In this document: positions 6,831-32,915 of the stretch, piece by piece
How the letters are laid out: every line of letters starts with the position of its first letter
How positions within the stretch are numbered: position 1 is the stretch's first letter
Assembly (NCBI RefSeq): GCF_004010195.1
Contig: NC_057758.1
Location: forward strand, 3,055,307 to 3,090,481
DNA length: 35,175 nucleotides
Origin: Chiloscyllium plagiosum
Lineage: Eukaryota
Direction: 5' to 3'
Made by a program: the position numbers and the translations under genes
Notes under the pieces: generated by a model
What the model saw: only the letters and a program-made list of their open reading frames with translations
What the model was told of the DNA's origin: nothing
Databases searched by the model: none

Positions 6831-7117
6831 ATAAGGGATTAATCCATCCCTGAAGAACTAAGTGTTCGAAGTAATGAAGTATTGATCCAAAACCACCTGA
6901 AGAAGTTTGAATGATTCATGTTTTGGGTGATTGATGCATTTCCTGCATGACGAGGTGATTGCTGTGATGAGGCATTAATCCATCACGACTGGAGGAGTAC
7001 ATGATTGATGTTATCACGGTTTGATCCATTCACCAAGACAACTGGGTAATCGATGTGGGCAACCTCAGAGATACACAAATACAGATACAAATACAGATAC
7101 ACAGACACACATATTCA

Positions 7118-7925
7118 AAAGGCCCACAACACACTGCAGTACACCAGAACTGCAAAAAGAGGAAGAAGAACACCAATACAATGTATTTGCCAAAAACAGA
7201 CACCGCCACAATGTCATCAACAGATGCCTAAGGGAAAGACAACGGAATGAGAACATGCCACAACCCAAAGGACTAGCCACACTACCATACATCAAAAACA
7301 TTTCCGAACTGATAGCCAGACTTCTGCGACCACTAGGACTCATAACAGCACACAAACCAACAGCCACTCTTAGACAACAACTCAACAGGATGAAGGACCC
7401 GATACCCAGCATGAGCAAAACCAATGTAGTGTACAAAATCCCATGCAAGGACTGCACAAAACACTAGATAGGACAAACAGGAAGACAGCTAACGATCCGC
7501 ATCCATGAACACCAACTAGCCACGAAATGACACGACCAGCTATTCTTAGTGGCCACATACTCAGATGACAAGCAACATGAGTTCGACTGGGACAACACTA
7601 CTATTATAGGACAAGCCAAACAGAGAACAGCCGGGGAATTCCTAGAGGCATGGCACTCATCCACTGATTCAATGAACAAGCACATCGACCTGGACCCAAT
7701 ATACCGGCCACTGCAGCGGACAGCTGGAACTGACAACCGGAAGCGGCAGATATAAAACACTATAAATGCCGGAGGAAAGATCACAGAAGCGCTTCACAGG
7801 AGGCTCCCAAGAACTGAGGATGTCACCTAGACAGGGGACGAAACGTCTGCAACACAAATTCCCAGCTCGGCGAACAGAGCCACAATAACGAGCACCCGAG
7901 CTACAAATCTTCTTCCAAACTTTGA
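7118..7925 (+). mobile_element. 5'-truncated Penelope-like element (Poseidon-like) with GIY-YIG endonuclease and 3' pseudo-LTR
   Basis: LATLPYIKNISELIARLLRPLG...VVYKIPCKDCTKH*IGQTGRQLTIRIHEH...EFLEAWHS, with in-frame stops. Flanked by an 11-bp direct repeat ACACATATTCA (7107-7117, 7926-7936). Confidence 0.92.
7811..7850 (+). ncRNA. Minimal hammerhead ribozyme motif in PLE pseudo-LTR
   Basis: CTGAGGA (7814-7820), T, stem II GTCACCT/AGAC/AGGGGAC, then GAAAC-GTC; predicted cleavage after 7847. Stem I has one mismatch in this copy. Confidence 0.75.
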
Positions 7926-8726
7926 ACACATATTCACAAATACGCTTCCCTCCAAGACACAAATATGTCCCGTGCGAGGCAAAGCTAGTCGCACACAGTT
8001 TCTCATCCCTATTTACAGAAGTTATAACTTGGGATATTTTAAAATGCACATCATTTGGTCCCCTTGACTGACGTGGTCTAAAACCATTCTTCAAATTATC
8101 TTCAGTTACAGCGTCGTAGAGTCCTACTGTACGGAGACAGGCTGGTTTGTCTTAATTGGTCAATGCTTATAAAAAGAAATCCATCAACGCCACATTCATT
8201 TCCCTGTACTTATCCCATATCCTTCTAAACCTTTCCTATCCATGTGTTTGTTCAAAACTTTTTAAAATGTTGTTAATGTACCCGTCTCAACAACTTCTGC
8301 TGGCAGCTCATTCCATATGCGTACCACTCTCTGTGTGAAAACGTTGCCCAACAACTTCCCTTTTCTGCAGTCCCTTCAATTTAAACTGATGTCCTCTAAT
8401 CTTTGGTTCCTAAACCTTGGAAAATTACTTAATGCTTTCACCCTATCCATGCCTCTCATGATCTTATGCACTTCTATAATATCCCCTCTCAGCCTCCTAT
8501 ACTCGAGGTAAAAAAGCTCAAACTTGTCCAACATCTTCTGTTAACTCAAACCCTTGGATCCAAAAATCTTGGACATTTCTTCTGCATTCTTTCCAGTTCA
8601 ATAATATAATTCCTATTGAAAAGTGACCAAAACTGAACACAATCCTACAACCGCCTCCTCAAAAACGCCCTGTCCAACTACAGCATAACTTCCCAACTTC
8701 TGTGCTCAATGCCCTGACTGATAGAG

Positions 8727-9709
8727 TTGAAAAGTGTGGTGCTGGAAAAGCGCAGCAGGCCAGGCAGCAACCGAGGAGCAGGAAAATCGACGTTTCGGGC
8801 ATAAGCCTTTCTTCCGGAATGAGGCTGGTGTGCCAGGCGGGCTGAGATAAAAGATGGGGGGAGAGTTTGAGGGAGGGGCGCTGGGAATACGAGAGGTGGA
8901 AGGAGGTGAGGGTGAGGATGATAGGCCGGAGAGGGGGTGGGGGCGGAGAGGTCGGGAAGAAGATTGCAGGTCTGGAGGGCGGTGCTGAATCCGGAGGTTG
9001 GGACTAAGATAAGATGGGGGGAGGGGAAATGAGGAATCTGGAGACATCTACATTCATCCCGTGTGGTTGGAGGGTTCCTAGGCGGAAGATGAGGTGCTCT
9101 TCCTCCAGGCGTCGTGTGGCCAGGGTCTGGCGATGGNNNNNNNNNNNNNNNNNNNNNNNNNNNNNNNNNNNNNNNNNNNNNNNNNNNNNNNNNNNNNNNN
9201 NNNNNNNNNNNNNNNNNNNNNNNNNNNNNNNNNNNNNNNNNNNNNNNNNNNNNNNNNNNNNNNNNNNNNNNNNNNNNNNNNNNNNNNNNNNNNNNNNNNN
9301 NNNNNNNNNNNNNNNNNNNNNNNNNNNNNNNNNNNNNNNNNNNNNNNNNNNNNNNNNNNNNNNNNNNNNNNNNNNNNNNNNNNNNNNNNNNNNNNNNNNN
9401 NNNNNNNNNNNNNNNNNNNNNNNNNNNGGTGGAAGGTGAGGACCAGTGGGGTTCTGTCCTGGTGGTGATTGGAGGGGCGCGGTTCAGGGACGGAGGTGCG
9501 GGAAGTGGAGGATATGCAGTGGAGAGCATTGTCGACTATGTCAGAGGGAAAATTGCGGTCTTTGAAGAAGGAGGGCAGTTGGGCTGTTCGGTAGTGGGAA
9601 ACGTCGATTCTCCTTCTCCTCGGGTGCTGCCTGGCCTGCTGTGCTTTTCCAGCACCAAACATTTCAACTCAGGTCTCCAGCATCTGCAGTCCTCACTTTC
9701 TCCTAGTTC
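8727..9709 (-). mobile_element. Penelope-like element (second, Neptune-like family) with inverted pseudo-LTRs; spans the assembly gap
   Basis: Perfect 16-bp TSD GCCCTGACTGATAGAG (8711-8726, 9710-9725). Minus-strand protein remnants FFKDRNFPSDIVDNAL...DRTPLVLTFH and RRLEEEHLIFRLGTLQPHGMN (PLE endonuclease C-terminus). Terminal repeat present in opposite orientations at about 8727-8820 and 9598-9705. Confidence 0.85.
9137..9427. other. Assembly gap (291 N)
   Basis: Run of N bases. Confidence 1.
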
Positions 9710-9997
9710 GCCCTGACTGATAGAGGCCAGTATGCCAAAAGCTTCTTCACAGTGACTCCACTTTCAGAGAACCGTGAACGTGAACTCCAAGGTCCCTCTG
9801 ATCCATTGCACTTCTTAATACCCTACCATTCATCATTAAACTCCAACCTTGATTTAACTTCCTAAGTGCAAGACCTCACACGTTTCAATATTCAATACCA
9901 TATGCCGTTTCTCAGCCCACTTCCCCAGCTGTTCAAGATTCTGCTCCAATACCGGTAACCTTCATTACTAAACACAATAATTCCTGGTTCAGTGTCT

Positions 9998-11310: not shown

Positions 11311-13955
11311 GAGGACAAGGGTAGGTCCGATCAAGGACAGTAGTGGGAGACTGTGTATTGAGTCGGAAGAGAGAAGTGAGGTCTTGAATGAGTACTTTTC
11401 TTCAGTATTTATTTACAAACGAGAGGGACCGTATTGTTGAAGAGGAGAGTGTGAAATGGATTGGTAAGCTAGAGGAGATATTTGTTAGGAAGGAAGATGT
11501 GTTGGACATTATGAATAACTTGAGGATAGACAAGTCCCCCGGGCCTGACGGGATATATCCTCGGATTATGTGGGAAGCAAGAGAGGAAATTGCAGTACCG
11601 TTGCCAATGATCTTTTCGTCTTCACTGTCAACAGGGGTGGTGCCAGGGGACTGGAGAGTGGCGAATCGGTAATGAACCGGGACAAGTGGTGGGCTTGTTA
11701 GTGGGTGAACATTTTGGTGATGGTGACCACAATTCTGTGACTTTCACCTTGGTTATGGAGAGAGATAGGTGCGCCCAACAAGGTAGATTTTATAATTGGG
11801 GGAAGGGAAATTACGATGCTGTAAGGCAGGATTTGAGGAGCATACGTTGGGAGCATAGGCTGTCAGGGAAGGATGTGGTGGAAATGTGGAACTTTTTCAA
11901 AGAGCAGATACGTCGTGTCCATGATATGTATGTACCTATCAGGCAGGAAAGAAATGGTCGTGTGAGGGAGCCTTGGTTGACGGGAGAGGTTGAATGTCTG
12001 GTAAAGAGGAAGGAGGAGGCTTACATAAGGTTGAGGAAACAGAATTCGGACAGAGCAGTGGAGGGATACAGGATAGCCAGAAGGGACCTGAAGAAAGGGA
12101 TTAGGAGAGCTAAGAGAGGGCATGAAAAATCGTTTGGCGGATAGGATCAAGGATAACCCTAAGGCATTTTATGCGTATGTGAGAAACATGAGAATGACAA
12201 GAACGAGTGTAGGTCCGATCAAGGACAGTAGTGGGAGACTGTGTATTGAGTCGGAAGAGATAGGAGAGGTCTTGAACAAGTACTTCTCTTCAGTATTTAC
12301 GAACGAGAGGGACCGTATTGTAGAAGAGGAGAGTGTGAAATGTACTGGTAAGCTAGAAGAGATACCTGTTAGGAAGGAAGATGTGTTGGACATTTTGAAC
12401 AACTTGAGGATAGACAAGTCCCCCGGGCCTGACGGGATATATGCTAGGATTATGTGGGAAGCAAGAGAGGAAATTGCAGTACCGTTGGCAATGATCTTCT
12501 CGTCTTCACTGGCAACGGGGGTGGTACCAGGGGACTGGAGAGTAGCGAATGTTGTGCCCCTGTTCAAAAAAGGGAATAGGGATAACCCCGGGAATTACAG
12601 GCCTGTTAGTCTTACTTCTGTGGTAGGCAAAGTAATGGAAAGGGTACTGAGGGATAGGATTTATGAGTATCTGGAAAGATACTGCTTGATTAGGGACAGC
12701 CAGCATGGATTTGTGAGGGGTAGGTCTTGCCTTACAAGTCTGATTGAATTCTTCGAGAAGGTGTCCAAGCATGTGGATGAGGGTAGAGCAGTGGATGTAG
12801 TATGCATGGATTTTAGTAAGGCATTTGATAAGGTTCCCCATGGTAGGCTTATGTGGAAAGTCAGGAGGCATGGGATAGTGGGAAATTTGGCCAGTTGGAT
12901 AGAAAATTGGCTAACCAGTCGATGTCAGAGAGTGGTGGTAGATGGTAAATATTCAGCCTGGAGCCCAGTTACAAGTGGAGTTCCGCAGGGATCAGTTCTG
13001 GGTCCTTTGCTGTTTGTAATTTTTATTAATGACTTAGATGAGGGAGTCGAAGGGTGGGTCAGTAAATTTGCAGATGATGCGAAGATTGGTGGAGTTGTGG
13101 ATAGTGAGGAGGGCTTTTGTCGGCTGCAAAGGGACTTGGATATGATGCAGAGCTGGGCTGAGGAGTGGCAGATGGAGTTCAACCCTGCCAAGTGTGAGGT
13201 TGTCCATTTTGGAAAGACAAATAAGAATGCGGAATACAGGGTTAACGGTAGAGTTCTTAGTAAGGTGGAGGTGCAGAGGGATCTTGGGGTCTATGTTCAT
13301 AGGTCTTTGAAAGTTGCCACTCAGGTGGATAGAACTTGTAAGAGGGCCTATGGTGTATTAGCGTTCATTAGCAGAGGGATTGAATTCAAGAGTCGTGGAG
13401 TGATGTTGCAGCTGTACAGGACTTTGGTTAGGCCACATTTTGAGTACTGTGTGCAGTTCTGGTCGCCTCACTTTTGGAAAGATGTGGAAGCTTTGGAGAG
13501 GGTGCAGAGAAGATTTACCAGGATGTTGCCTGGAATGGAGAATAGGTCGTACGAGGATAGGTTGAGCGTGCTAGGCCTTTTCTCATTGGAACGGAGAAGG
13601 ATGAGGGGTGACTTGATAGAGTTGTATAAGATGATCGGGGAATAGATAGAGTAGACAGTCAGAAACTTTCCCCCCGGGTACAACAGAGTGTTACAAGAGG
13701 ACATAAATTTAAGGTGAAGGGTGGAAGGTATAGGGGAGATGTCAGGGGTAGGTTCTTTACCCAGAGAGGGGCATGGTATGCGCTGCCTGTGGGAGTGGCA
13801 GAGTCAGAATCATTAGCGAACTTTAAGTGGCAATTGGATAGGTACATGGACGGGTGCTTAAGCTAGGACAAATGTTCGGCACAACATCGTGGGCCGAAGG
13901 GCCTGTTCTGTGCTGTATTGTTGTATGTTCTATGTTCTATGTTCTATCTATATTC
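11311..13955 (+). mobile_element. Young 5'-truncated CR1 LINE 'C' with an extra 5' copy of an internal segment
   Basis: Nearly open ORF2 from 11668, 3' UTR and a (TTCTATG)n-type tail at about 13922-13958. Segment 11321-11666 repeats about 12209-12550. Confidence 0.95.
11668..13645 (+). pseudogene. CR1 ORF2 remnant: end of APE endonuclease, linker and reverse transcriptase (frameshifts near 12135 and 13638)
   Basis: The 152-aa ORF (GEHFGDGDHN) overlaps a 507-aa ORF with NYRPVSLTS, QHGF, DFSKAFDKVPH, GVPQGSVLGPLLF, FADD and YRTLVRPHFEYC. The EN N-terminus is missing, so the element is non-autonomous. Confidence 0.93.
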
Positions 13956-16860
13956 TATGAGCCTGGCTATGTGGTTCAGAAAGTAAGCGAGAAGAATAGG
14001 AGAGCAATAGTGTTAAGAGATACAATGTTCAGAGAAACAGACATGAGATTCTGTGGTTGTGATCGAGACTCACATCTGGTATGTTGCCTCCCGTATGCCA
14101 GAGTCAGGAATGTTTTGGATAGGGTCTGCAGGATTCTTAAGGAAGAGGAAGAGCAGCCAGAAGTCGTGGTGCACATCGGTATCAATGATAATGTTCGGGA
14201 AAGGGAGAAGGACGTGAGAAGAGAGTACAGGGAATTCAGCTGGAAGCTAGAATTCAGGACGAGCAAAGTCGTAATCTCGAGATTGCTACCACGTGCTAGT
14301 GAGTCTAGGGTTAGAGAGCGAGTGCAGCTGAACAAGTGTCTGCAGGGCTGGACTCGGAGGGAGGGCTTCAAATATGTGTATCATTGGGATGTCTTCTGGG
14401 AAATTTGAGATCTGTAAAAGAAGGGCGGGTTTCCGCTGAACTGAAATGGCACCAATATCCTAAGCGGGAGGTTTGCAAAAGATTTTTGGGAAGATTTCAA
14501 ATAGATAGGCTGGAGGTGCGAACTACAAATCGGATGATGATTAAGGCAGTGACCAGCCAGATGCAGTGTGCAGAGAATCTGTGAGTAGGCGTAGGCACTT
14601 GATAGGGCAACGGTGAAGTAAGTGTGATGGGTTGAAGTATGTCGGTTTTAATTCAAGATGTATCAGTATTAAATGTGACAAATTCAGAGCATGGATCAGT
14701 GCTTGGAACTATAATGCTGTGTCCATTGCAAATATTTGGATATCACATAGGCAGGAATGTTTGTTGGATAATCCAAGGTTAAAATGTTTCAAAATGAATG
14801 GCGGTCGGTGGTGGCGGGAGGAGTGTGGTGGCGGGTGTGGGAATGGAGGGTGAAGGTAAAAGATGTGGAGGAGTGGTATTGCTAATCAGGGATAGCATCA
14901 CAACTGCAGAGCGGGACGCATCGAGGAGGGTTTTCTCCAGAGTCAGTGTGCTTGGAATTCAGAAACAGGAAAGGAGCACTCACTTTATTGGGAGCTTTCT
15001 TCAGGGCCCTCAAAAACAACGGAGAGGCAGGGGAGCAGATTGGGAGGCAGATTTTCAAGAGGTGCAGAAGTAAGACAGTTGTTGTCATAGGATCTTTAAT
15101 TTCCCTAATATTTATTGAAACTCCATTATTCAAACGGATTAGAATTAGCATTATTTGTCAGTTGTGTTCAGGAAGGGTTCCTTATGCAATATATAGATCG
15201 GCTGACTCGAGGAGAAGTCATATTGAATTTGGTGGGAGGCAATGAAACATGCCGGATGTCAAATCAATCGGTGGGAGAGCATTTTGGTGATAGTGATCAA
15301 AATTCCCTGATATTTACTCTACCCATAGATAGGAATAGGAGCAGACGGTATGAGAAAGTATTTAAATACGGGAGGGGGAATTGCAATTTCATTAGGCAGT
15401 AACTGGTACGCCTAAATGGGAATGGATGTTCCCTCAGGGAAGTGAACAACAGAAATGTGGAGGTTGGTTAGGAAGCACTTGCTCATAGTGCTAGACAGTT
15501 TTGCCCCAGTGAGGCAATGAAGGGATGGTAGACTGAAAGAACATTCGTTGGAAAGGGATATGGAGCATCCAGTCAAATTGAAGAAAGAAGATGACTTAAG
15601 GTTCATGAAGCAGGAATCTGACAGGGCTTTGAAGGATTAAAAGGGAGCTAGGAAGGAACTGAAGAATTGACTTAAGAGGGATATAAGGGAACATGAAAAA
15701 GTTTTAGTTGGTAGGACTAAGCAAAAACCTTAGGCATTGTACATTTATGAGAGGAACAAGATTATGGCCAGAGTGAGGGTATGATTAATCAGGGATAGTT
15801 GAGGGAATTTGTGCCTGGAGTTGGAGGAATTATGGAGACCCTTAATGAATACTTTGCTTCAGTGTTCACAAATGAGAGTGTCCTTGACTTTTGTGAGTAC
15901 AGATTCAAATAGACTGATGTGCTTGAACATCTTGATGTTAGGAAGGAGGCTGCGCTAAAAATTTGGAAAACATGAGGATGGGTAAATCCCCTGGGCTGGA
16001 TGCAAAATAACCGAAGTTACTACAGAAAGCGTGAGAAGAGATTGCTACGTCTTTGGCGATGATCGTTGCGTCCTCACTGTCCACTGGGGCAGTGCCAGAT
16101 GATTGGAGGATGGCAAATGTTATTCCCTTGTTCAAGACAGCGATTAGGGATAATCCTCGGAATTAAAGACCAGCCAGTCTTACATCAGTGGAGGCCAAAG
16201 TATTGGAGATGATTCTGAGAGACAAGATTTTAGATTATTTTAAAACCATAATTTTATTTGACATAGTCGTCATGGTTTTGTGTGGGACAGGCTTGCCTCA
16301 CAAACATTATTGACTTCTTTGAGGACGTGACAAAACATATTGATTAAGATAGAGCGGTGGATGTGGTGCATATGAATTTAGCAAGGTGTTTGATGAGTTT
16401 TCCATGGTAGGCTCAATCAGAAAGTAAGAAAGCATGGGATGTAGGGAAATCTGCTTTCCTGGATACACAGTTGGCTGTCCCACAGGAGACAGAGTGCTGT
16501 GGTCGATGGAAAGTATTCAGCCTGGAGCTTGGTGGCCAGTGGTGTCCACAGAATCGGATCTGAATGAGGAAGTAGATGGGTGAGTCGTAAGTTTGCCGAT
16601 GATACGAAATTTGTTGAAGTTGTGGATGGTGTGAAGGGCTTCTGTGGGTTGCAACGGGGCTTTGACAGGGTGTAGGACTGGGTGATAAGGGGCGGGTGGA
16701 GTTCAATCTGGGAATGTGTGAAGTGAGTCACTTTGGAAGTTCCGATTTGAATGTAGAATACAAGGTACAAGGCCGGAATGTTAGCAGTGTGAATCAACAT
16801 CCACATGTCCGTAGATAGCTCAAAGTTGTCAGAAACGTTGATAGGGCTGTTAAGTGGGCA
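13956..16860 (+). mobile_element. CR1 LINE 'B', middle part: ORF1 SGNH-esterase-like domain and degenerate ORF2
   Basis: RRAIVLRDTMFR...VCCLPYARV...PEVVVHIGINDN matches CR1 ORF1 esterase blocks (GDS-, LPGA-, HIGTND-like). It is followed by EN pieces (KYVGFNSRCI, GGVVLLIRDSI, VGEHFGDSDQN) and a broken RT. Confidence 0.88.
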
Positions 16861-17176
16861 CATAGAATATAGAACATAGAACAGTACAGCACAGAACAGG
16901 CCCTTCAGCCCACAATGTTGTGCCGACCACTGATCCTCATGTATGCATCCTCAAATTTCTGTGACCATATGCATGTCCAGGAGTCTCTTAAATGTCCCAA
17001 TGATCCTGCCTCCACAACTGCTGCTGGCAACGCATTCCATGCTCTCACAACTCTCCAACCAGCTTAAAACTATGACCCCTCGTGTTCGTCATTTCTGCCC
17101 TGGGAAATAGCCTGTGACTCTGGATCAGTGGTGCTGGAAGAGCACAGCAATTCAGGCAGCATCCGAGGACAGGCAA

Positions 17177-17212
17177 AATCGACGTTTCGGGCAAAAGCCC
17201 TTCATCAGGAAT
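17177..17212 (-). ncRNA. Minimal hammerhead ribozyme motif (inverted partner)
   Basis: Exact reverse complement of the 17217-17252 motif. Confidence 0.75.
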
Positions 17213-17216
17213 TTTT

Positions 17217-17252
17217 ATTCCTGATGAAGGGCTTTTGCCCGAAACGTCGATT
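17217..17252 (+). ncRNA. Minimal hammerhead ribozyme motif
   Basis: CTGATGA (17221-17227), A, stem II GGGC-TTTT-GCCC, GAAAC-GTC; predicted cleavage after 17248. Stem I is weak. Confidence 0.75.
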
Positions 17253-18202
17253 TTGCCTGTCCTCGGATGCTGCCTGAATTGCTGTGCTCTTCCAGCACCA
17301 CTGATCCAGAATCTGGTTTCCAGCATCTGCAGTCATTGTTTTTACCTAATAGTCTGTGGCTATCGACTCTACCTATGCCTCTCATTATCCTGTATACCTC
17401 AATTAGGTCCCCTCTTCTCCTCCTTTTCTCCAATGAAAAATGTCCGAGCTCAGGCAACCTCTCCTCATAAGATAAGCCCTCCAGTCCAGGCAGCATCCTG
17501 GTAAACCTCCTCTGAACCCTCTCCAAAGCATCCACATCTTTCTTCTAATAGGACGACCAGAGCTGGACACAGTATTCCAAGTGCGGTCTAACCAAAGTTT
17601 TATAGAGCTGCAACAAGATCTCACGACTCTTAAACTCAATATCCCTGTTAATGAAAGCCAAAACACCATATGCTTTCTTAACAACCCTGTCCACTTGGGT
17701 GACCATTTTAAGGGATCTATGTACCTGCACCCCAAGATCCCTCTGTTCCTCCACACTGCCAAGAATCCTATCCTTAATCCTGTACTCAGCTTTCAAATTC
17801 GACCTTACAAAATTCATCACCTCGCATTTATCTCGGTTGAACTCCATCTGCCACCTCTCAGCCCATCTCTGCATCCTGTCAATGTCCCGCTGCAGCCTAC
17901 AACAGCCCTCTATACTTTCAACGACACCTCCAACCTTTGTGTCATCTGCAAATTTGCTGACCCAACCTTCAATCCCCTCATCCAAGTCATAAATAAAAAT
18001 TACAAACAATAGAGACCCAAGGACAGAGCCCTGTGGAAACCACTCACTACATACTTCCAGGCAGAATATTTTCCTTCTACTAACACTCGCTGTCTTCTGT
18101 TGGCCAGCCAATTCTGTATCCAGACAGCTATGTTCCCCTGAATCCCATTCCTCCTGACCTTCTGAATGAGCCTACCATGGGGAACCTTATCAAATGCCTT
18201 CA

Positions 18203-23145: not shown

Positions 23146-23164
23146 ATTATATGGTACTTTGAAA

Positions 23165-23377
23165 AAACGGGCGTGCAGTAATGGAAAATCACAGCCGATC
23201 AGGCAGCAACTGAGGACCAGAAGATTCGACGTTTCGGCCTTAAGACCTTCATCAGGAAGGGCTTATGCCCTAAACGTCCGTTCTCCTGCTCCTCGCATGT
23301 TTTCCGACCTGCTATGCTTTTCCAACAACGCACTCCCGACTCTGATCTCCAGCATCTGCAGTCCTCACCTTCTCCTA
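23165..23377. mobile_element. Older inverted PLE pseudo-LTR pair
   Basis: Same architecture as 17119-17347 but diverged. The minus strand at 23228-23255 retains CTGATGA-A-GGTC-TTAA-GGCC-GAAAC-GTC; the plus copy is truncated and mutated. Confidence 0.8.
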
Positions 23378-23565
23378 CCTTGAGAATGTACAACACTCAG
23401 TGACGGAACCAGAACTAGCACAGAGGAGCACCATATTTGATACATATGCTGTCGCTTTATAGGATGAGATGTCGTACAGAAGCAAGTGAACACTTGATAC
23501 AGAATCAGGTGTAGAGCGATGGAATCTGCACCAGTGACCGAGATGTGGGTCATTTCATTAGGTGA

Positions 23566-24194
23566 TCAAAGTTTGGGTGAAGATTTGTAGCTCGGGTGCT
23601 CGTTGTTGTGGTTCTGTTCGCCGAGCTGGAAATTTTTGTTGCAAACGTTTCGTCCCCTGTCCAGGTGACATCCTCAGTGCTTGGGAGCCTCCTGTGAAGC
23701 GCTTCTGTGGTGTTTCCTCCGGCATTTATAGTGGTCTAATCCTGCCACTTCCGGTTGTCAGTTTCAGCTGTAGTGGCCGGTATATTGGGTCCAGGTCGAT
23801 TTGTTTGTTGATGAAGTTTGTGGATGAGTGCCATGCTTCTAGGAATTCCCTGGCTGTTCTTTGTTTGGCTTGCCCTATAATGGTAGTGTTGTCCCAGTCG
23901 AATTCATGTTGCTTGTCGTCTGCGTGTGTGGCTACTAAGGATAGCTGGTCGTGGTGTTTCGTGGCTAGTTGATGTTCATGGATGCGGATCGTTAGCTGTC
24001 TTCCTGTTTGTCCTATATAGTGTTTTGTGCAGTCCTTGCATGAGACTTTGTACACTACATTAGTTTTGCTCATGCTGGGTATAGGGTCCTTCGTTCTGGT
24101 GAGTTGTTGTCTGAGGGTGGCTGTTGGTTTGTGTGCTGTTATAAGTCCTAGTGGTCGCAGTAGTCTGGCTGCCAGTTCTGAAATGCTCCTGATG
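23566..24194 (-). mobile_element. 5'-truncated Penelope-like element (same family as 7118-7925), GIY-YIG region open
   Basis: 159-aa ORF 23726-24205 with VVYKVSCKDCTKHYIGQTGRQLTIRIHEH...REFLEAWHS. 12-bp TSD TAGGTGATCAAA (23559-23570, 24195-24206), partly overlapping the element end. Confidence 0.93.
23641..23680 (-). ncRNA. Minimal hammerhead ribozyme motif in PLE pseudo-LTR
   Basis: The reverse complement reads GCA-CTGAGGA-T-GTCACCT-GGAC-AGGGGAC-GAAAC-GTT-TGC, with stem I GCA/TGC. Confidence 0.75.
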
Positions 24195-24257
24195 TAGGTG
24201 ATCAAATTATCTGTAAAAAAAAAGGAATCTCCATAGATTTCAGAGACAGTAAAGACT

Positions 24258-24545
24258 TTAAATCTTCTCGCTGTTTAATGCATTTAACAATTTGATTAAA
24301 AGACAGTTCAGCATATTCTTCAACTGCTCGTTGAAGTTAGTGTCAGTCTGAGCATAACGACAACATTTTTTGCAGCAACTCAGCAACTGCAGCACAAAAC
24401 CTATTTCACATACAAGGTCAGGCGTCCATGTGGGACTGAAACCAAAGAAATACATGCATCTCCATATCGGATAAACCAACAGCATTGTCCATAACAAGAC
24501 AAAATTCCCCGAGATAACAACAGTAAAACAGTTGGTTTTCTTCCA
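24258..24545 (-). pseudogene. GPR139-like: Truncated GPR139-like GPCR fragment (TM6, TM7, C-terminal tail)
   Basis: RKPTVLL, then a frameshift, then VISGNFVLLWTMLLVYPIWRCMY...EIGFVLQLLSCCKKCCRYAQTDTNFNEQLKNML. This aligns by eye with RKSIVLLFVQSANFILL*TMLMVYSLW...EIDFMLQLLSCCTNTLIYAVTQIMFRDQLKHML at 31765-32030. Confidence 0.85.
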
Positions 24546-30170: not shown

Positions 30171-31145
30171 CTACTCTCTAAATGGGGCAGAGAGTGAGGG
30201 TTGGCCGCATGGTGACTGTAGGCAGCAGAAATCATGACTCGGCAAATATTAGTATTTGGGAACTTAAGTGCAGATGTTGATAATTCGACCAAATTTGTAC
30301 ATCCGAAGATGGAGGTAACACGAAAGGACAATATATAAAATACGGAATGATGTCGTGGTTGTCCCATTTTTTTGTGGTTCTGAATGGGTTTCGTTTAATG
30401 GCTTAAGAAAGTAGCAAAATGTTAGAATGTCACTCTTTCCCGTGGAATTCCTAAAGATTTTTCTGTTTAGAAAACAGATTTAGTAATTTAGAGTATTTGG
30501 AGAGAGAACAGCAAAGATATATTTTAAAATGAAACGTCAGCTTAACAGGAGTTAAGTAACACGGGTCAGAAAATGAAGTTGTAAGTCAGAGAGCCTGTTG
30601 CTTTTTTGTCTCAAGCTGAAGTTAGAGAGTTATTGTTCTCCACTTGTCAACTATAGATTATATTATTGTTGATTTATAGAATTGATAACAATTGATAGAA
30701 TTTAATGTCCTTCTTAATCTGCCATTCTCAAGTTAGTACAGAAATTGGAAAGAGTTCTTCCTGAAAAACAGATATTGAGCTTATTGGTCAAAATTCTGAA
30801 TTTCGCTGGGGTATCCAAAGCATCATTGACTTTCCGCTCTGAGCTGCCATAAGAGAGAATTTCTGCTTCATTTGAAAGCTGGATAGACTGTAGCTACTGG
30901 CCTCTGTTACATATGTGGAAATAAAGTTTTGAAGGAGCTAAGGAACGCAGGACTAAAGGCTCCACTATCATATTTCTCCCCAAAATAGATCTTCTTGCTA
31001 TTTGATTTTGAGCTTCTCCAGTGTTATAGAAGTTGCACTCATCCATGCAAGGAGTGAGACACCTTGGTGTTCAAAGTTTGTGAGAAGATTTGTAGCTCGG
31101 GTGCTCGTTGCTGTGGTTCTGTTCGCCGAGCTGGAAGTTTTTGTT

Positions 31146-31185
31146 GCAAACGTTTCGTCCCCTGTCTAGGTGACATCCTCAGTGC
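31146..31185 (-). ncRNA. Minimal hammerhead ribozyme motif
   Basis: The reverse complement reads GCA-CTGAGGA-T-GTCACCT-AGAC-AGGGGAC-GAAAC-GTT-TGC. Confidence 0.72.
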
Positions 31186-31419
31186 CATACTTTTGTTGAT
31201 GGAGTTTGTGGATGAGTGCCATGCTGTTGATGGAGTTTGTGGATGAGTGCCATGCTACTCATGGCACTCATCCACAAACTCCATCAACAAACACATCGAC
31301 CTGGACAATATACCGGCCACTACAGCGGACAGCTGAAACTGACAACCGGAAGCGGCAGGGACAGGCCACTATAAATGCCGGAGGAAACACTACAGAAGCG
31401 CTTCACAGAAGGCTCCCAA

Positions 31420-31459
31420 GCACTGAGGATGTCACCTAGACAGGGGACGAAACGTTTGC
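31420..31459 (+). ncRNA. Minimal hammerhead ribozyme motif
   Basis: GCA-CTGAGGA-T-GTCACCT-AGAC-AGGGGAC-GAAAC-GTT-TGC; predicted cleavage after 31456. Confidence 0.72.
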
Positions 31460-31764
31460 AACAAAAACTTCCAGCTCGGCGAACAGAACCACAGCAACAC
31501 CTTGGTGTGAGTGGCAGTCAGGGGGTAAGTTACTTTTTTTTATAGAATACATGGGCTTCCTGATAATATCGCAGCCAAAGCGTGGATGCCATTGACTCAG
31601 TAAAATGTCTGATCAATGGTAACACCTGGTATTTTCTCAACAGCTATTGACGCATAAAAATCCAATTGAGAGCCTGAGGGAGATACTGCAAGTATCTACT
31701 GGAAATGTTTCATTTATAAAGTCAAGTGAGAATCAGTCCAATCTTATTCTGTGTTTTTTTATGC

Positions 31765-32649
31765 TCATCGCCTCATCGAACATATTGCATGATATTTCAG
31801 CATGTGTTTCAACTGATCTCGGAACATAATCTGTGTTACAGCATAAATAAGAGTGTTTGTGCAGCAACTCAGGAGCTGCAGCATGAAATCTATTTCATGT
31901 ACAATTTCAGACGTCCAAAATGATACATCACTGAATAAATACATTTGCTCCCATAGGGAATAGACCATTAACATTGTTCACAACAATATAAAATTAGCTG
32001 ACTGTACAAATAGTAAAACAATGGATTTCCTTCGACTCTGCACTTCTGGATCTTTGGGATTCTTCTCGCTTCTGTAGGCCCGAAGTCTCCTGCGCGCTCT
32101 ACTGGCTTTTAAAATGTGTTTGACAGTGAAAGCATTCAGAAACAGAATCAAGACAAATGGAACACATGGGGTCAGAATGTAATGCAGAAAATCAATTATT
32201 GTCCACAACAATGTCATGGCAATAGCCCCTTCTGTATAACAAAACCAGCGAGCTCTATCAAGAATGTACGTACATGAAGCACCAGAAAATATTCTTTCAG
32301 CAGCTCAGTACTGCTACTGTTCCCAGAACCATAGCTGCTGTTCTCTCATTGAAATATTTACGTTTCAGCTTCTGATAACACATGGCCACAGATCGATCAA
32401 AGGTGAAAGTGGCGGTGAACCAGACAGAACAGTCAGTGGCTGCATAAAGCAGGATGGCGTGGATATTGCACACAGGGATGGAATACAGGAAATAAAACTG
32501 CTCCTGATAAACAATCGGAATGAGTCTCAATACCACGTCGACGACAATGGCCAGTAGATCCGCCACTGCCATGGCCTCCAGGCAACGACTGACTGATCCA
32601 GAGAGACCACGTGATCTGCGAAAGAGGATGAGAATCGCCATGATATTAG
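31765..32649 (-). pseudogene. GPR139-like: GPR139/GPR142-like class A GPCR, complete large second coding exon, disrupted
   Basis: A splice acceptor ctctcaccctcgcAG (AG at 32651-32650) precedes a phase-1 (A)NIMAILIL, as in GPR139 exon 2 (ANILTVIIL). Motifs: TM2 LEAMAVADLL, TM3 CSVWFTATFTFDRSVAMC, TM5 LTPCVPFVLILFLNAFTVKHI, TM6 RRKSIVLL and TM7 LQLLSCCTNTLIYAVTQ. Lesions: TGA at 32297-32299, a frameshift at about 32258-32275 and TGA at 31978-31980. Confidence 0.9.
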
Positions 32650-32915
32650 CTGCGAGGGTGAGAGGTACATGCCTGTTACTTTATTCCCTTTATGCCCTCG
32701 ACAATGATTTATTTTCAAAATTCCATCATTTTCGCACACTTCCCAGAAATCAATAATTCACTGAGTATTTAGTTGCCTCTCTGTATTCTCGAAGTATTGT
32801 CTACAAACCCTGAATTATTCTAATAAACTCGGGCAAAGAAGACACCAAGAAATGAGTTTATTGATCGATAAAGAGAATGGATAGGATAATTCATAGGAGA
32901 CAGTGGTTTCCGGTT

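Follow-up and report, generated by a model that had tools for sequence, protein, structure and literature searches.

Within the window, i.e. the whole stretch of 35,175 nucleotides of Chiloscyllium plagiosum DNA analyzed here, a LINE is split by a short palindromic insertion, whose parts are listed in Table 1 together with related insertions elsewhere in the window. As described in the first-pass annotation, the insertion contains a perfect palindrome around a TTTT loop, the two arms of 94 bp matching exactly by reverse complement; if a single mismatch at 17118 is allowed, they reach 97 bp (17116-17313). The element as a whole is asymmetric, since the tail that follows the sense arm has no mirror partner, a feature overlooked in the first pass. 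Between the target site duplications (TSDs) lies a discrete unit of 228 bp if the TSD is taken as 14 bp, or of 231 bp if it is taken as 11 bp, and the locus itself presents neither an ORF body nor a tandem array. The inverted arm stops at the fixed tail-less boundary of its family. Three of the four loop T's (17214-17216) correspond to the natural upstream sequence of the sense strand, as given by the loose-end consensus at 17214 in X1 and X3 of the public DNA data, and at least one T is untemplated or slipped. The loop has no self-complementarity.

Table 1. Features of the palindromic locus and of related insertions (positions are those of the window; PLE, Penelope-like element; TSD, target site duplication).
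Feature	Position	Strand	Remarks
Host LINE, 5'-truncated (RT C-terminus and 3' end), split by the insertion	16860..18200	-	RVT_1
Left TSD	17106..17119	.	14 bp, 2 mismatches; or 11 bp (17106-17116), 1 mismatch, with the arm from 17117
Inverted arms	17119-17212 / 17217-17310		exact reverse complements, 94 bp; repeat comparison
Inverted tail-less PLE pseudo-LTR end	17119..17212	-	starts 4 nt upstream of C3
Minimal hammerhead motif, inverted arm	17177..17212	-	C3 at 17208
Loop TTTT	17213-17216		head-to-head junction of the arms
Sense tailed 5'-truncated PLE copy (pseudo-LTR end)	17214..17347	+	starts 7 nt before C3
Minimal hammerhead motif, sense arm	17217..17252	+	descriptor scan and comparison with PMC4209133
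Sense-arm motif: core	17221-17227
Sense-arm motif: extra A	17228
Sense-arm motif: helix II	17229-17240
Sense-arm motif: GAAA	17241-17244
Sense-arm motif: palindromic ACGU	17244-17247		predicted cut after 17248
One-sided tail	17311..17347	+	37 nt; 34 nt if the arm is taken to 17313
Right TSD	17348..17361	.	agrees with the uninterrupted LINE form
Sister insertion, family of the palindrome	8711..9725	.	16-bp perfect TSD, above all 60 random controls
Older palindromic sister copy	23155..23386	.	arms 55/82 identical; no spacer
Second, unrelated PLE family, same layout	31059..31508	.	12-bp perfect TSD

The TSD-like flank of 14 bp reported in the first pass is present with two mismatches, and an equally good boundary gives an 11-bp TSD with one mismatch and an arm of 96-97 bp with one mismatch. 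Judged by sequence alone the 14-bp repeat is weak, as 3 of 60 random boundary pairs score as well, and it is backed by two further observations. An uninterrupted LINE joint from 17105 to 17348, with five letters fitting both sides, occurs in all three public DNA runs (2, 4 and 2 contigs), and the 242 bp that it skips equal the element plus one TSD (228 + 14 or 231 + 11). In addition, the translation of the right flank ends in ...GRVDSHRL and that of the left flank begins with SHRLFPRAEM..., so that the S-H-R-L codons are duplicated. The records that join 17105 to 17348 probably represent paralogous LINE copies rather than an empty orthologue. Since they follow the right-hand copy of the target, both TSD differences sit in the left copy, and one of these, at 17117, has the letter expected from the arm. 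Both mismatches between 17106-17119 and 17348-17361 are synonymous third-codon changes (Ser, Arg) in the frame of the host LINE, which may be fortuitous (about 1 in 9) or due to a patch derived from a different LINE copy. Furthermore, a microhomology of 1-4 nt is observed where the end of a tail-less arm overlaps the TSD, at 8724-8726 and at 17116-17119, and target and element letters are intermixed at 17117-17118; the overlap possibly corresponds to primer-template annealing at that start site.

The host LINE, likewise overlooked in the first pass, is recognized by a match to RVT_1 (E = 3.2e-10, 17548-18171), the only label obtained from the profile search, and we take it to be CR1-like. Its reading frame is continuous across the insertion site, and it is colinear with a copy at 12818-13667 (74%) and 13852-13942. 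Between 11600 and 21600, LINE copies of either orientation are nested, one of them (12092-13645) with an open RT frame of 517 aa, and the host copy appears to sit within another LINE fragment.

Both arms read CUGAUGA-A-GGGC(UUUU)GCCC-GAAAC-GUC. A descriptor scan found seven sites with core and helix II in the window against 0.4 expected from 30 resampled sequences, and two of the seven are these arms. The features known from minimal hammerheads of PLEs are present, namely the core C3-A9, G12-A14, A15.1, U16.1 and H17, the extra base 9/10.1, the G10.1-C11.1 pair and the palindromic 15.2/16.2 positions. Helix I of the sense-arm motif is weak, with 2 bp, a U.U and an A-U pair against about 4-5 bp in the minimal hammerheads of PLEs, and there is no intramolecular helix III. 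Rfam returned no match at gathering score across the window, and none of the 18 rows of an E-value scan of 16900-17600 (E <= 10) is a hammerhead model. Most of these rows are matches to miRNA families; those at 17116-17313 were rejected, as all of them fall below gathering and reflect the hairpin alone. At the CpG of the ACGU palindrome (17245, 17246), C>T or G>A changes account for 7-16% of the depth in the DNA runs, as expected for decaying copies.

The first-pass view of two back-to-back ribozyme units holds insofar as each arm carries the motif, but the two motifs lie on opposite strands, 13 nt apart and head to head, so that no transcript carries two ribozymes, the dimer needed for cleavage cannot form in cis and, in either direction, transcription reaches the antisense arm before the sense arm. 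The RNA of 17106-17361 is predicted to fold at -211.1 kcal/mol (z = -29), a stability reached by none of 200 shuffled sequences. In equilibrium predictions for 12 transcript lengths, the probability of helix II stays at about 1e-14 throughout, compared with 0.998-0.999 in an isolated arm. Read-through from either strand is thus predicted to let the antisense arm zip up the ribozyme as it emerges, in line with the block to cleavage that had been proposed in the first pass. Even for a single arm, the fold with helices I and II (-5.3 kcal/mol) compares with -11.4 kcal/mol for an inactive monomer fold. Free cofolding of two monomers yields an inactive duplex at -24.6 kcal/mol, while the ACGU/ACGU pairing contributes only -1.7 kcal/mol, values that speak neither for nor against dimer cleavage. 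In our reading, the ribozyme motif is a passenger here, which would require a second sense copy to form helix III. For the DNA, a hairpin of -132 kcal/mol was computed, a value that is uninformative on extrusion in chromatin.

The palindrome is not the sole member of its family in the window, as the unit has nine matches at six loci. Inverted pairs are present at three loci of this family, and their junctions differ in all three. The insertion at 8711-9725, tied to the palindrome by 86% identity over 86 nt, has a long inverted tail-less arm that runs more than 750 bp upstream, into RT/EN coding sequence of a PLE, and a short tailed arm that begins within the hammerhead, at GAAAC; the arms are identical at 67 of 73 positions. 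The only N gap of the window (9137-9427, 291 bases) lies inside this long inverted arm. At 23155-23386, one of the arms begins 3 nt ahead of C3 and its partner within the core, and the TSD is not above chance; TSD searches at four family loci (3787/3884, 23165/23378, 32906/33040 and 33712/33800) gave nothing that exceeds chance. The 3' ends of the family fall into two classes: all four tail-less arms end near the position equivalent to 17310-17313, and all four tailed arms about 34-40 nt beyond it, the ninth arm (33716) being too diverged for its 3' end to be placed. Among 13 arms from this and a second family (boundaries set by eye), six begin 2-7 nt before C3 and none at the cut site, two begin inside the motif, four continue upstream and one is unclear.

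The identity of the element was approached through the coding fragments of the sister copy at 8711-9725. The fragments on either side of the N gap match one retrieved protein, P0015, in the right order, at residues 136-191 (48% over 56 aa) and 334-375 (52% over 42 aa). According to this match, about 140 codons are missing at 9137-9427, which exceeds the stated length of the gap. The Atlas clusters nearest to P0015 carry HTH_animal, GIY-YIG and RVT_1 (score 0.95), and an Atlas search with the 43-aa fragment gave unnamed clusters only and a GIY-YIG lead at 0.79. Pfam matched neither coding fragment of the sister copy nor P0015, a homologous-protein search with the 56-aa fragment returned nothing, and the top relative, P0001, has no match to the C-terminal fragment. 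The sole Pfam match among the nine retrieved relatives, of P0004 to FAM212 (E = 0.081), was rejected. By eye, P0015 presents C-x4-C-x2-C followed by a GIY-YIG-like motif that contains two inner cysteines. In the accessible part of Craig et al. (2021, PMC8557442), a CX2-5CxxC linker before GIY-YIG is given as a marker of the Neptune/Nematis clade. This Neptune-like linker is seen in the relative P0015, the window's own linker region falling within the N gap, and the family of the palindrome is probably Neptune-like as judged from sequence. Via the sister copy, the terminal repeat is located downstream of an ORF with RT and C-terminal GIY-YIG. Together with the anatomy of the insertion, this RT/GIY-YIG-type coding sequence supports the PLE origin suggested in the first pass.

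The same layout is found in a second, unrelated PLE family at 31059-31508, where two hammerhead motifs stand head to head, the arms are identical at 79 of 79 positions and a 36-37-nt tail is present on one arm. Given this case and the three different junctions of the first family, the palindrome is neither unique nor a fixed propagating unit. The junction of the second-family insertion holds a filler (31186-31290) composed of a 31-bp tandem duplication and a nested inverted repeat of 65-100 bp that is copied from the element's own nuclease-coding end, which suggests repeated template switches. Longer copies of this family at 7009-7930 and 23566-24274 show GIY-YIG-like coding ends followed by an intact hammerhead motif, although the Pfam match of the nuclease to GIY-YIG (E = 0.024) is below the cut-off, and the copy at 7814 continues beyond the tail. 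Elsewhere, at 31978-32680 on the minus strand, a rhodopsin-family GPCR sequence lies in two overlapping frames (7tm_1, E = 2.7e-07 for 32300-32680); it is either a frameshifted gene or an assembly error.

Public DNA runs were used to assess abundance and junctions. A 701-bp stretch that includes the flanks collected 76,353, 33,023 and 45,571 records in three runs, about half of which fit both arms; the best runs contain only 0.56 of the sampled words and may come from other species. No listed contig piece of the three runs spans the palindrome's own junctions or loop. Among the joints listed, at least seven further distinct junctions from left to right arm were found (six among 15 of 190), which are read as head-to-head junctions of other copies, with internal deletions as an alternative. 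In X3, the joint from 17213 to 17301 reaches a depth of 938.8 over four contigs and that from 17163 to 17228 a depth of 788 in one, far deeper than the other junctions shown, a depth that is not to be read as copy number; these may be recurrent or amplified junction forms. The loose ends in X3 are heterogeneous, with an agreement of 0.35 at 17211 and 0.49 at 17214, consistent with many copies ending there. The one RNA run compared (X22) gave 0 reads for the stretch, which is uninformative on transcription.

The first-pass annotation had contrasted the perfect arms with the imperfect TSD and considered arm-to-arm conversion. With 0 of 94 mismatches in the arms against 2 of 14 in the TSD, the contrast is significant (Fisher p = 0.016), and an insert of the age of the host LINE would show 0/94 with a probability of only about 0.002, both of which favor maintenance of identity after insertion by gene conversion between the arms or by cruciform repair. 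However, the equally good alternative boundary gives 1/97 against 1/11 (p = 0.19), and the insert may be young: in X3, departures from the majority letter affect 14 of 445 positions in the flanks against 1 of 228 in the element (p = 0.026, 40 of 42 rows), which suggests that the insert is younger than the host LINE, an age estimate that rests on paralogue majorities, possibly from different species. Near 17170-17172, the palindrome copy departs from most family contigs in X1 and X13. Moreover, the element stays near the majority letter of the high-depth X3 subfamily, while conversion would spread private changes to both arms. The palindromes of this family do decay, since the arms at 8711-9725 are down to 67/73 next to a perfect TSD, the reverse of the pattern at the palindrome, and the sister without a spacer is down to 55/82. 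Conversion is therefore not needed to explain the arms, and we regard it as very unlikely.

Taken together, we consider it likely (roughly 0.8) that the palindrome is a single, relatively young, dead-on-arrival insertion of an EN-bearing PLE, cut down to its hammerhead end, in the presumably CR1-like LINE. This reading draws on the succession of TSD, inverted tail-less arm, tailed arm and TSD, on membership in a PLE family and on junctions that vary by copy, and it agrees with the truncation-plus-inversion branch of the first-pass interpretation, as an inverted tail-less copy joined to a tailed copy between TSDs is the published PLE pattern. Here, the RT-endonuclease of the PLE would make a staggered cut 11-14 bp wide, and both 3' ends would prime cDNA on PLE RNA, the distal start site giving rise to the tail and the proximal one to an end without it. 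Both cDNAs would halt at the hammerhead's front edge and then be end-joined head to head across the short T run; the arms would be identical because of their common source and the little time available for divergence. Within the PLE reading, two primed cDNAs are moderately favored, fold-back of one cDNA or antisense self-priming is considerably less probable, and a small remainder falls to other routes.

That a single cDNA reached the 5' end of its template and folded back on the AT-rich junction, or that an antisense template primed itself, would leave the PLE identity unchanged, and at the palindrome alone it is compatible with a tailed arm that is longer at both ends, with the inverted arm wholly contained in it and identical to it. 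Junction palindromes were taken as self-priming on an antisense template in the available portion of Arkhipova et al. (2013, PMC3846280). On the other hand, only about 1 bp is available for priming here, so that extra T's would be needed. The constant position of the tail-less end, in turn, matches initiation of RT at a defined site. Of the four inverted loci, two (8711-9725 and 31059-31508) have arms that each carry sequence absent from the other, the tail on one side and the upstream body on the other. These two insertions require two separate RNA-derived copies and cannot have formed by simple fold-back. Priming from both cut ends is accordingly favored by the two preferred 3' ends and the private sequence of each arm, and fold-back at the palindrome seems rather doubtful. 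It should be considered that the identity evidence on junctions comes from n = 3 inverted copies of the palindrome's family.

The first pass had also considered a non-autonomous ribozyme mini-element; such a palindromic element, multiplied as one unit, would resemble retrozymes or MITEs. A discrete 228-bp unit with a TSD, the very large family suggested by the 76,353, 33,023 and 45,571 records (flanks included) and the two high-depth foreign junctions in X3 would fit such an element, and non-autonomous PLE derivatives are known from the accessible part of a recent preprint (bioRxiv 10.64898/2026.07.22.740005). Nevertheless, different inversion points in each copy, named in the first pass as speaking against a self-propagating unit, are what the window presents (3 of 3 inverted copies, a small number), with at least seven more distinct junctions among the joints listed. 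Retrozymes are head-to-tail tandems and the palindrome is head-to-head, and the -211 kcal/mol hairpin would hide its ribozyme and RT start region; we assign the mini-element a very low probability. An assembly artefact is hardly more probable, whether as a fold-back chimera or as a genuine insertion with arms homogenized to the high-copy consensus in the course of assembly or polishing: another family copy in the window contains an N gap, copies of the family are extremely abundant and none of the independent records crosses the loop, but the mirror ends at 94-97 bp and is followed by the tail and by the correct continuation of the LINE with a duplicated target, the net length agrees with the 242-bp skip in all three runs and the loop is not self-complementary. 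Since a chimera would not lead, by way of a tail and a target duplication, back into the proper flank, a pure artefact is barely credible, and most of the small probability left to artefacts falls to homogenized arms.

A more far-reaching version of the preferred PLE reading is improbable as a whole, although somewhat less so than conversion, a mini-element or an artefact. It would regard such stubs, which occur in very high numbers, as the genomic record of a PLE-specific double priming on short RNAs that are headed by the front edge of the hammerhead, combined with a dsRNA brake. A dimeric RT-endonuclease would prime both ends of the staggered cut from two RT start sites, read-through would generate perfect dsRNA against the ribozyme and the RT-start region of active copies, and some junction forms would perhaps be amplified secondarily. 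Inverted-repeat hairpin transcripts are a general source of siRNAs in Drosophila according to the accessible text of PMC7334843, which provides no link to the palindrome locus. In the openly accessible literature, no report of shark PLE stubs of this kind was found, and nothing specific on twin priming or hairpin siRNAs of PLEs. If hairpins feed small-RNA silencing, a by-product of transposition would limit its own element.

The palindrome is real and ordinary for the PLE class, and its layout has already been described. As one among very many truncated PLE insertions, the single locus is of little weight; it represents a clean minimal example for a question that the cited papers leave open, the origin of inverted, tailed PLE insertions. 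With young, TSD-flanked copies from this genome, double priming could be contrasted with fold-back genome-wide, and it could also be seen whether the copied RNA starts at the hammerhead. In the accessible portion of Craig et al. (2021, PMC8557442), typical PLEs present an adjacent inverted 5'-truncated copy, a pLTR, a 30-40-bp tail at one end and a TSD, and inverted pLTRs with a tail and TSDs of 8-10 bp are shown in the part of Arkhipova et al. (2013, PMC3846280) that was available. Like EN+ PLE insertions, the palindrome has a head-to-head inverted copy, a tail on one arm only (34-37 nt), a TSD of variable length (about 10-16 bp) and another retroelement as its target; unlike them, it consists of two pLTR ends alone (228 bp), with arms 4 nt apart.

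For the minimal hammerheads of PLEs, the available text of Cervera and De la Pena (2014, PMC4209133) reports monomers without cleavage, dimers with low cleavage, a 2-bp helix I in D. virilis and pairs of motifs located on opposite strands at a distance of about 100-700 bp. Compared with the hammerheads in that text, the palindrome differs in a helix II of 4 bp and a helix I of 2 bp, a U.U and 1 bp, and its dual motifs are spaced by 13 nt instead of 100-700 bp; cartilaginous fish are not mentioned in the accessible part of that paper. The PAc protein of the Anolis Poseidon element, as far as the accessible sections of Frangieh et al. (2024, PMC11167929) describe it, nicks and extends both strands in vitro. 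RT begins at two internal positions located 3' of the hammerhead, which delimit a tail of 30-40 bp; hammerhead cleavage needs the protein and is dispensable for insertion. Two RT start sites fit the two fixed 3' ends of the palindrome's family, although PAc belongs to the Poseidon clade and the family looks Neptune-like, and head-to-head joining is not shown for PAc in those sections. Finally, the non-LTR retrozymes of animals are tandem elements that have been reported in the one chondrichthyan sampled, according to the accessible part of the preprint (bioRxiv 10.64898/2026.07.22.740005). Like these, the palindrome is short, non-coding, hammerhead-bearing and pLTR-derived; unlike their head-to-tail tandems, which can form dimeric ribozymes, it comprises a single pair, head to head, in which each strand has one sense ribozyme.
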